Assembly (NCBI RefSeq): GCF_057098645.1
Contig: NZ_CM169472.1
DNA length: 64,000 nucleotides
Reading direction: 5' to 3' (one strand)
The notes under the pieces are model-generated. The model worked only from the letters and a program-made list of their open reading frames with translations, searched no databases and had not been told where the DNA came from. The position numbers were made by a program, and so were the translations under genes. Positions 1 to 1,794 of the stretch are shown here, in pieces; the stretch's first letter is position 1, and each line of letters opens with the position of its first letter.

Positions 1-1166
1 ATCGCGCCGCAGCGCAACGCATTCTGCCGCCGTTCCTGTTCCACTATATGGATGGGGGTGCATATTCTGAATACACGCTGCGCCGCAACGTGGAAGATTT
101 GTCAGAAGTGGCGCTGCGCCAGCGTATTCTGAAAAACATGTCCGACTTAAGCCTGGAAACGACGCTGTTTAATGAGAAATTGTCGATGCCAGTGGCGCTA
201 GGTCCGGTAGGTTTGTGTGGCATGTATGCGCGACGCGGCGAAGTTCAGGCAGCCAAAGCGGCGGATGCGCATGGCATTCCGTTTACTCTCTCGACGGTTT
301 CCGTTTGCCCGATTGAAGAAGTCGCGCCAGCCATCAAGCGCCCAATGTGGTTCCAGCTTTATGTACTGCGCGATCGCGGCTTTATGCGTAACGCGCTGGA
401 GCGAGCAAAAGCAGCGGGTTGTTCGACGCTGGTTTTCACCGTGGATATGCCGACACCGGGAGCGCGTTATCGTGATGCGCATTCTGGGATGAGCGGCCCG
501 AACGCGGCAATGCGCCGCTATTTGCAGGCGGTGACGCATCCGCAATGGGCGTGGGATGTGGGCCTGAACGGTCGTCCGCATGATTTAGGAAATATTTCGG
601 CTTACCTCGGCAAACCGACCGGACTGGAAGATTACATCGGCTGGCTGGGGAATAACTTCGATCCGTCCATCTCATGGAAAGACCTTGAGTGGATCCGCGA
701 TTTCTGGGATGGCCCGATGGTGATCAAAGGGATCCTCGATCCGGAAGATGCGCGCGATGCAGTACGTTTTGGTGCTGATGGGATTGTAGTTTCTAACCAC
801 GGTGGCCGCCAGCTGGACGGTGTACTCTCTTCCGCTCGTGCACTGCCTGCTATTGCAGATGCGGTGAAAGGTGATATAGCCATTCTGGCGGATAGCGGAA
901 TTCGTAACGGGCTTGATGTCGTGCGTATGATTGCGCTCGGTGCCGACACCGTACTGCTGGGTCGTGCTTTCTTGTATGCGCTGGCAACAGCGGGCCAGGC
1001 GGGTGTAGCTAACCTGCTAAATCTGATCGAAAAAGAGATGAAAGTGGCGATGACGCTGACTGGCGCGAAATCGATCAGCGAAATTACGCAAGATTCGCTG
1101 GTGCAGGGGCTGGGTAAAGAGTTGCCTGCGGCACTGGCTCCCATGGCGAAAGGGAATGCGGCATAG
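1..1166 (+). CDS. lldD: L-lactate dehydrogenase (FMN-dependent alpha-hydroxy acid dehydrogenase), 5' end cut by window edge
   Basis: Frame-3 translation from base 3 reads [19 protein letters not shown]..., continuous with ORF 48..1166; stop at 1164-1166. Recognised as LldD by sequence and lld-trmL-cysE synteny. Confidence 0.9.
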
Positions 1167-1176
1167 TCATTTGCGC

Positions 1177-1269
1177 CCCCTCCCCCTAACCCTCTCCCTC
1201 AGGGAGCTGTCTCTTGATCAGATCTCCTGATCAAGAGACAGGGGGAGGGCCGGGGTGAGGGGAAAAGGC
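1177..1269. repeat. Imperfect ~90-bp palindrome; perfect 15-bp inverted core arms (ctgtctcttgatcag / ctgatcaagagacag, 1207-1221 and 1227-1241) flanked by C-rich and G-rich arms
   Basis: Read directly: ccctctccctcagggag-CTGTCTCTTGATCAGATCT-cc-tgatcaagagacag-ggggagggccggggtgagggg. The 19-mer at 1207-1225 matches the IS50 inside-end sequence as I recall it. Confidence 0.5.
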
Positions 1270-1320
1270 CGCACGGTTCACCAATTTTCTGCTATCCTGC
1301 CCCCGCACTAAGGGGGCAGT

Positions 1321-1794
1321 ATGCTAAACATCGTACTTTACGAACCAGAAATTCCGCCAAATACTGGCAACATCATCCGTCTTTGCGCTAATACCGGCTT
1401 TCGTCTGCATATCATCGAACCGATGGGATTTGCCTGGGACGATAAGCGCCTGCGCCGCGCGGGGCTGGACTATCACGAGTTTACCGCCGTTACGCGTCAT
1501 CATGACTACAGCGCGTTCCTCGAAGCAGAAAATCCCCAGCGCCTGTTTGCCCTCACCACGAAAGGTACGCCTGCTCACAGCGCCGTAAGCTATCAGGATG
1601 GCGATTATCTGATGTTCGGCCCGGAAACACGCGGCCTGCCAGCGAGCATTCTTGATGCCCTGCCCGCTGAACAAAAAATTCGCATTCCGATGGTGCCAGA
1701 CAGCCGCAGCATGAACCTGTCCAATGCGGTGTCGGTAGTGGTGTATGAAGCCTGGCGGCAGCTGGGATATCCGGGAGCGGTGTTGAGAGATTAG
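1321..1794 (+). CDS. trmL: tRNA (cytidine/uridine-2'-O)-methyltransferase, SpoU/TrmH family
   Basis: 157-aa ORF, SpoU-type methyltransferase sequence, position between lldD and cysE. Confidence 0.9.

Follow-up and report, generated by a model that had tools for sequence, protein, structure and literature searches.

A 35-bp palindrome between lldD and trmL of Escherichia coli is probably the scar of an ISEc13 insertion into a BoxC hairpin

The most detailed study of the BoxC repeats of Escherichia coli, also described as PIT or TMECO elements (Bachellier et al.; Hoyne & Maher; PMC4666352), lists 23 TMECO copies in MG1655 (Holder et al. 2015, PMC4666352, Table 1). Its authors found TMECO loci to be unusually variable among strains and inverted TMECO pairs to shed their inner parts in a way that keeps a hairpin formable, a tendency termed the 'palindrome effect', and they reported a high local instability whose mechanism they called unclear, never having found transposons or transposase remnants associated with TMECOs (PMC4666352). 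Here we describe one such locus, the spacer between lldD and trmL in a 64,000-nucleotide stretch of contig NZ_CM169472.1 (referred to as the window), in which the remains of an inverted TMECO pair enclose a perfect 35-bp palindrome (the core) that corresponds in sequence to both termini of the insertion sequence (IS) ISEc13 without the interior. We consider this 35-mer to be, with a probability of roughly 0.8, an immobile relic of an ISEc13 insertion into a BoxC hairpin, the interior of the element having been lost later. As such it belongs among the IS-derived scars, which are a known kind.

Several insertion sequences target extragenic palindromes: IS1397 and ISKpn1 insert into REP/BIME, and IS231A inserts into GGG-N5-CCC. 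The target of ISEc13 is comparably strict and symmetric and is offered by host palindromic repeats (BoxC) and terminator-like hairpins, but it differs from those cases in its motif (CCYCY-N8/9-RGRGG) and in the host repeat family. Nearly precise excision of Tn10 and Tn5 is said to remove the interior of these transposons between short repeats near their ends, and the lldD-trmL locus would resemble the remnants of such events (Ross, Swan & Kleckner 1979; Foster et al. 1981) in a repeat-mediated interior loss, aided by inverted repeats, that leaves a short palindrome at the old site. It differs from them in that a single IS is concerned and not a composite element, in its 7-bp repeats and in a remnant of 35 bp as against 50 bp for Tn10; moreover, the right duplication is mostly lost here and related scars in other genera have inverted, not direct, flanks. 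With miniature inverted-repeat transposable elements (MITEs) the core shares IS-derived terminal inverted repeats (15 bp, perfect), the lack of coding capacity, an intergenic position and a hairpin-forming transcript, but it is far under their usual 50-500 bp and has no duplication, one locus in E. coli and no evidence of movement.

The core begins with CTGTCTCTTGATCAGATCT (window 1207-1225), which is identical to the IS50 inside end at 19/19 positions, as the first-pass annotation of this DNA had noticed, and which has this single match in the 64-kb window even at ≤3 mismatches (chance expectation 0.02). The same annotation had derived the palindrome from IS4/IS50-type ends, and this derivation is borne out by a blastn comparison of ISEc13, a member of the IS50 group, with the window, which extends the identity to the first 33 bp of the element (Table 1), aligns ISEc13 positions 1-15 with 1241-1227 on the other strand (15/15) and gives no further match. 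The centre of the core reads ATCTC as in ISEc13, whereas that of Tn5/IS50 reads ATCTT (the Tn5 context being taken from a published primer), which identifies an ISEc13-type element, not IS50, as the source. The three Dam sites (GATC) that had been counted in the core are present, at 1216, 1221 and 1229. An inverted 15-bp copy had been placed immediately after the 19-mer; the copy is indeed perfect, but it does not follow immediately, because the 5 nt of the centre lie between the arms. The 19-mer extends 4 nt into this centre, so that a pair of 19-bp 'ends' could not be placed here without overlap.

When the spacer was run as query against 5,426 complete E. coli genomes, 'IS4 family transposase' pseudogenes were matched as well, and the transposase-3' terminus of the IS at those loci is CTGTCTCTTGATCAGATCTCCTGATCAAGAGAC-TT... 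In ISEc13 copies the same 33 bp are followed by TT at positions 34-35, and the AG that closes the core probably originates from the other ISEc13 terminus. Within ISEc13, AAGAGAC is found just at positions 27-33 and 1542-1548, and joining both copies yields the 35-mer exactly; the inside-end-like terminus also repeats its own bases 3-15 in inverted form at positions 21-33. No transposase is encoded in the window (best tblastn E value with the ISEc13 transposase, 1.3), and with none between its ends the core is therefore a remnant and not an IS. It retains terminal sequences of the family type (5'-CT..., IS50-type ends), Dam sites included, and its surroundings fit the ISEc13 target, but a mere 35 of about 1,550 bp are left, with no transposase gene, interior or intact duplication, and where the intact IS has the outside-end-like CTGTCTCTTATACAC..., the core has its first 15 bp once more, inverted and perfected, as its second terminus.

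ISEc13 itself belongs to the IS50 group of the IS4 family and measures 1,539-1,564 bp (~1.55 kb); intact copies are labelled 'IS4-like element ISEc13 family transposase' by PGAP, and E. coli genomes carry up to 32 copies of the element. Its transposase is homologous to that of Tn5 (E 1e-41 across the N-terminal 250 residues; Pfam Tnp_DNA_bind domain), and in the intact element the terminal hairpin contains the last seven tnp codons and the stop codon. The second terminus, CTGTCTCTTATACACAA(A/G)T, is like the IS50 outside end. The ISEc13 ends (L012 301-1850; L013 301-1864) are nearly those of IS50 despite the divergence of the transposases, with 19/19 identical positions in the inside end and 18/19 in the outside end (CTGTCTCTTATACACAAGT in L013), and the outside-end-like terminus is one which we take to resemble closely the engineered Tn5 mosaic end.

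The hairpin that holds the core starts 10 nt past the lldD stop codon and ends 58 nt ahead of the trmL ATG. Its C-rich (1177-1199) and G-rich (1240-1262) outer arms of 23 nt each are 78% complementary, and the region folds much better than shuffled sequence both as RNA (-63.4 kcal/mol, z -4.8) and as DNA (-31.5 kcal/mol, z -5.6), in keeping with the ~90-bp imperfect hairpin that the first-pass annotation had described. The arms had not been recognised there as the known BoxC/TMECO 17/18 pair. Both match GGGAGAGGG-NNN-GGGTGAGGGG, a motif of BoxC, PIT or TMECO, with one mismatch and on opposite strands. TMECO 17 (type A, antisense, 3,781,028-061) and TMECO 18 (type B, sense, 3,781,121-156) have been catalogued at 81.5 min (PMC4666352), and the K-12-type allele of the spacer (L002, 197 bp) contains exactly these two sequences, 59 bp apart.

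The window keeps the outer parts alone of this inverted pair, both adjoining the core. In the left arm blocks 3 and 2 are present with just 5 nt of block 1, which is shortened by the core, and in the right arm a shortened block 2 and block 3 are present, the first block and the loop being absent. The arms match the family consensus and are orthologous in position to the catalogued TMECO copies, and they are degenerate remnants, neither being an intact triplex motif of three successive blocks (C-block, G-block, G-block) joined by short loops. The locus thus resembles the described TMECO loci (PMC4666352) in the outer blocks of its arms, in its strain-to-strain variability and in its 'palindrome effect', and it differs from them in that no arm has all three blocks and the centre is IS-derived. 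In the K-12-type allele (L002 301-497), 72 bp lie between TMECO 17 and the body of TMECO 18, and a 9-bp direct repeat, GGGAGAGGG, stands on both sides of them; this inverted pair could have arisen when an insertion or a duplication took place in a single palindromic BoxC, or it could be a ready substrate for deletion by slippage.

Table 1. Features of the core-bearing hairpin, in positions of the window
Feature	Position	Strand	Basis or detail
Whole imperfect hairpin (arms, core and internal bulge at ~1199-1206)	1176-1263	+	Folds; about 86 nt
Left arm, type A BoxC/PIT/TMECO remnant, antisense	1176-1206	-	1-mismatch match to GGGAGAGGGNNNGGGTGAGGGG, minus strand, 1177-1198
Parts of left arm			CCCCCTCCCCC 1176-1186; TAA 1187-1189; CCCTCTCCC 1190-1198; TCA 1199-1201; GGGAG 1202-1206
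Putative left copy of the ISEc13 target duplication, CTCAGGGAG	1198-1206	+	Half-site TCTCC (1193-1197) ahead; target consensus
35-bp core	1207-1241	.	Perfect 15-bp inverted arms 1207-1221 and 1227-1241 around ATCTC (1222-1226)
ISEc13 positions 1-33	1207-1239	+	blastn of ISEc13 against the window, 33/33 (100%); inside-end-like terminus
AG completing the second terminus	1240-1241	+	Intact ISEc13 has TT at 34-35; its other end finishes ...AAGAGACAG
Right arm, type B BoxC/TMECO remnant, sense	1242-1262	+	1-mismatch match at 1241-1262
Parts of right arm			GGGGAGGG 1242-1249; CCG 1250-1252; GGGTGAGGGG 1253-1262

The choice of this site by ISEc13 can be read from its other insertions. Junctions were read for 20 copies found by exact-protein look-up, two found by junction search and two plasmid copies (L012-L025 and L041-L050, from E. 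coli and Salmonella genomes and plasmids). Direct repeats of 8-9 bp, in agreement with the published duplication range for the IS50 subgroup, flank 19 of the 21 distinct copies comparable at both junctions. The remaining two (L022 and L023, at about 2.305 and 2.365 Mb of CP148541.1) have swapped flanks that re-pair perfectly (CTGGTTCG, TTGGGGAG), which indicates a ~60-kb inversion via recombination between both copies; a comparable flank swap is seen in L050, between the L044 and L045 sites. The 21 reconstructed sites share the consensus CCYCY-[8-9 bp duplicated]-RGRGG, with per-position counts (out of 21) of C(15)-C(21)-Y(21)-C(21)-Y(20) [N8-9] R(18)-G(21)-R(21)-G(21)-G(13), so that four positions are invariant, with C at -4 and -2 and G at +2 and +4. 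The strict motif has zero occurrences in the whole 64-kb window, and the consensus of the 21 sites is therefore far from chance.

Many of these targets are hairpins, either terminator-like stems or BoxC elements. Intact ISEc13 lies inside BoxC hairpins elsewhere in L014 (the tusA-zntA spacer), L015 and L023, and a truncated copy on pJJ1887-4 adjoins CCCTCTCCCTGAGGG, a BoxC hairpin. The K-12-type allele offers a preferred target of the same kind, TCTCC[CTCAGGGAG]AGGGG, in its TMECO 17 hairpin, and the core of the window starts directly after the same 9-mer, which would accordingly be what is left of a target-site duplication. The rule is unusually strict for a relative of Tn5; it would be useful for annotating insertions and of possible interest to engineers of Tn5-type transposases. 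In the literature searched we found no description of the target specificity of ISEc13 and nothing on a link between BoxC and an IS or on this spacer, and both the rule and the direct link appear to be undescribed, an earlier description being possible.

Comparison of the spacer across strains, which the first-pass annotation had recommended, revealed lengths from 47 to 197 bp and the core in 796 of the 5,426 complete genomes (~15%). Besides the 197-bp K-12-type allele there are an O157-type of 184/185 bp (L003, L004), the core-bearing allele of 153/154 bp (the window, L008-L010) with a 143-bp variant (L040), a 72-bp form in which just GGGGGTGAGGGG remains (L026) and a 47-bp form without any BoxC (L005), the constant part being the last ~43 bp ahead of trmL. 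An evenly spaced sample of the ranked search rows gave rough shares of 17% for the core-bearing allele, 27% for the O157-type, 20% for the K-12-type, 8% for the 72-bp and 27% for the 47-bp form. Carriers of the core include REL606, HS, enterotoxigenic E. coli (ETEC) and O145 isolates, and the allele is also found in gut metagenomes.

No feature is annotated at the 35/35 matches in E. coli, and those whose coordinates were unusual turned out on checking to be lldD-trmL; the 33/35 matches are ISEc13 ends. A search for further copies, also recommended earlier, thus placed every checked E. coli 35-mer at lldD-trmL alone. The first-pass annotation had set a universally conserved single copy against its own reading of a mobile element: the sequence is single-copy in E. 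coli, but it is not universal, being present in about 15% of genomes. A miniature inverted-repeat element, the first of the two readings offered there, found no support in E. coli, where the core has one locus and no duplication.

From these observations we infer the following order and mechanism of deletion steps. The starting state would be a BoxC/PIT/TMECO hairpin in the lldD-trmL spacer, into which ISEc13 would have inserted at a fitting target, TCTCC[CTCAGGGAG]AGGG, to give ...TCTCC CTCAGGGAG (IS) CTCAGGGAG AGGG... By one route, slippage between the 7-bp AAGAGAC repeats would then leave exactly the 35-mer, and a further loss of 5 nt between CAG and CAG (ACAG[CTCAG]GGAG) would produce the core followed by GGAGAGGGCCGGGG and remove most of the right duplication. 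By the other, a single fold-back (quasi-palindrome) template switch would suffice, in which nascent IS positions 21-33 pair with 3-15, copy AG and re-anneal on CAG. As both routes would lead to the same product, we do not think that they can be told apart. The outcome would be IS positions 1-33 plus a terminal AG, that is, a perfect 15+5+15 palindrome, and this scar would since have been inherited and spread by recombination to its present share of E. coli genomes, drifting by small changes of which some improve the hairpin.

The 143-bp variant L040 is informative in this respect. Its right flank, GGAGAGGGCCG, is the exact prediction of the reconstruction (core and GGAGAGGGCCGGGG), from which the window departs by one substitution (G at 1244; A in L040) and the common 153-bp form by one further G. 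In addition, 10 nt of the left bulge are missing from L040, which thereby forms a cleaner hairpin (z -8.5, one dominant structure), as the 'palindrome effect' would predict. The presence of the type B loop, 'CCG', in the right arm would mean that the 72 bp enclosed by the GGGAGAGGG repeats of the K-12-type allele were lost before or together with the IS. Two simpler or different mechanisms were tried and rejected. Plain AAGAGAC slippage as the whole story predicts a direct duplication that is absent from the window and from every solo core (those in other genera, described below), and use of an internal pseudo-end by the transposase would leave TT and not AG, the pseudo-end matching at 13/19 positions.

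A number of points weigh against an ISEc13 insertion as the origin of the core. Chimeric junction queries found no intact ISEc13 at lldD-trmL in the 5,426 genomes, so that the intermediate is unobserved, and a hypothetical pre-insertion allele with a single hairpin was not met among the sampled rows, all of which were two-piece matches. A clean direct duplication of 8-9 bp around the core is absent, the left flank being CTCAGGGAG and the right flank GGGGAGGGC; the sole recoverable repeat is the 7-nt CAGGGAG overlapping the core end, which survives on the right in L040 alone. To arrive at the present sequence from the insertion requires two or three events, or one complex event. Finally, E. coli, with as many as 32 copies of ISEc13, has one scar locus, while one Serratia silvae genome has five solo cores, an imbalance that recurrent scar formation does not obviously explain.

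The alternatives have to be weighed against the same body of data. The IS50 inside end is common in mini-Tn5 vectors and the 19-mer stands in the primer lists of several papers, which could suggest a laboratory artefact such as the scar of a Tn5-derived construct, if not a chance or convergent palindrome. However, 33/33 identity to a natural IS end cannot be chance, the centre is that of ISEc13 and not of Tn5, and the allele occurs in 796 independent complete genomes, among them the isolates named above, as well as in gut metagenomes, so that such an origin is effectively refuted by the population data and we give it virtually no weight. It is also very unlikely that the hairpin has been selected as an RNA or DNA structure, whether a large terminator or attenuator, a stabiliser of the lldPRD 3' end or a control on read-through into trmL. 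In favour of such a role, the stem-loop is of very high stability and lies close behind the lldD stop codon, small deletions in L040 improve it, and protection of mRNA 3' ends is known from other extragenic palindromes (REP). Against a selected structure, no U-tract follows the stem (the next sequence is GGAAAAGGCC), and the promoter and terminator scan found no promoter and, for the large stem, no terminator, with just a trivial stem of 5 bp. Together with the BoxC/PIT nature of the arms, this leaves the terminator/attenuator, the second reading of the first-pass annotation, without support. About 27% of the sampled rows lack the whole element, and this presence/absence polymorphism in a spacer of such variable length argues against a required role. 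Earlier work as summarised in PMC4666352 found no promoter or terminator activity of PIT elements, and mutational 'palindrome effects' alone, with no selection, would lead one to expect a palindrome that becomes more perfect (PMC4666352).

A permissive search of Rfam 15 with window 900-1600 gave a best score of 28.5 bits against a threshold of 80. Its matches, on either strand of the hairpin, were all to eukaryotic microRNA-precursor models, such as any long bacterial palindrome attracts, and being below threshold they were rejected as artefacts of hairpin shape. Most likely the element is neutral at present, a stable stem-loop in the 3' region of lldD that, by analogy with REP elements, might incidentally slow 3' exonucleases. 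Its two IS50-type ends and three Dam sites could in principle offer binding sites to the transposase of a resident ISEc13 or IS50.

Whether the 35-mer moves is a question raised by its occurrence in other genera. Exact-pattern scans of one genome per species yielded 13 further solo cores, and 16 further loci when metagenomes are included. The former are distributed over a soil Proteobacteria metagenome-assembled genome (MAG; two), Serratia silvae (five), S. proteamaculans, Budvicia aquatica, Salmonella diarizonae, Rahnella woolbedingensis and Escherichia sp. MOD1-EC7003 (two), and in the metagenomes the E. coli locus came up 12 times and the two soil-MAG loci were met again, together with three new, distinct loci. 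Most centres are ATCTC/GAGAT, but the soil organism has ATCTT, and Rahnella and a single metagenome contig have ACCTC. Nearly all solo cores lie between a C-block and a G-block, and in most of them, by our reading of the flanks against the consensus, ISEc13 half-sites stand 8-9 nt from each core end. None has a direct repeat of 8-9 bp. The flanking 8-9-mers are instead often reverse complements of each other, perfectly so in L027 and L037, off by one nucleotide in L057 and off by 'CT' in L029 and L032. Fold-back template switching at an IS end would give perfect arms, inverted flanks and a kept spacing, as would slippage with quasi-palindrome correction. We favour recurrent scar formation over a mobile MITE for these loci, because cut-and-paste transposition should give direct repeats, while the flanks are often inverted.

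A mobile 'nano-MITE', moved in trans by an ISEc13-family transposase or by BoxC gene conversion, is in our view decidedly unlikely. It could account for the 16 further loci in other genera, with as many as five in one genome, and agrees with the spacing of the half-sites on both sides of most cores, with the 15/19 end positions retained in both arms and with the result that no transposase gene was present in the 4-14 kb fetched around each of the 13 loci of the genome collection. The hallmark of DDE cut-and-paste transposition is missing from all solo cores, however, whereas intact ISEc13 shows it in 19/21 copies; inverted flanks as in L027 and L037 point to template switching, two 19-bp ends would overlap inside 35 bp, and in the 5,426 E. 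coli genomes, many of them with active ISEc13, the core never left its one locus. Goryshin et al. (1994) reportedly found Tn5 transposition to drop steeply for very short transposons. The window holds one copy, and the filled and empty lldD-trmL alleles differ by BoxC rearrangements and not by a clean insertion. A simple cut-and-paste insertion of a 35-bp MITE was rejected, no direct duplication being found at the window or at any solo core. Searches for empty sites of the Escherichia sp. MOD1-EC7003 copies in E. coli met flanks that are not collinear, those for orthologous Serratia loci via exact neighbouring proteins returned just the same contig, and no coreless TGCGA/TCGCA hairpin was found in the fetched loci.

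In its boldest form mobility would make the 35-mer the smallest transposon-derived mobile or self-propagating element, with overlapping IS50-type ends, spreading among the C-block/G-block hairpins of Enterobacterales and leaving inverted flanks. We regard this as unlikely; the spread could proceed through an ISEc13-family transposase acting on the extruded cruciform or through BoxC gene conversion. If a wider version were true, ISEc13-family elements would be a main cause of the 'genomic instability' that has been reported, without an explanation, for BoxC/TMECO loci. As the scar of an ISEc13 insertion, which we prefer, the element alone is harmless, but it shows ISEc13 homing in on BoxC-type repeats and provides a concrete mobile-element link for BoxC/PIT/TMECO, namely an IS50-group element whose direct target is the BoxC hairpin. 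With their inverted flanks, the recurrent 35-bp palindromes have the look of what quasi-palindrome template switching would naturally generate at the end of an IS, and where the IS itself is now missing from a genome they may still reveal its former activity.

Some solo cores share more than the core. L034 (Budvicia), L036 (Salmonella diarizonae) and L055 (metagenome) have nearly the same left flank, TTTTTGTCTATGGAAAACCCCCAGCCAGGCT, and L036 and L055 also have a right flank in common, with cores that differ in the orientation and sequence of their centre (ATCTC vs GAGGT), which suggests that this site lies on a horizontally moving element. L037, L057 and L066/L069, which are unrelated loci in different organisms, have TGCGA(A), core and TCGCA in succession and then a G-block. 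Either a host BoxC-like repeat family with that stem or a copied palindromic unit of ~45-65 bp may explain this arrangement.

The position of the core between lldD and trmL, as first annotated, is confirmed by the gene order of the window, which starts inside lldD (open reading frame end 1166) and continues with trmL (1321-1794) and then with cysE, gpsA and secB on the opposite strand; the RefSeq annotation of matching E. coli records gives these genes the same names. A second, smaller stem of 8 bp G+C, CTGCCCCC-GCACTAA-GGGGGCAG (window 1296-1320), ends one base ahead of the trmL ATG, holds the likely Shine-Dalgarno sequence and is conserved throughout the spacer alleles, that of 47 bp among them. 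Folded as DNA it reaches -9.6 kcal/mol (z -2.9), and the translation of trmL may be under its control. With GCCCC[CGCACTAA]GGGGG, this stem almost fits the ISEc13 target.

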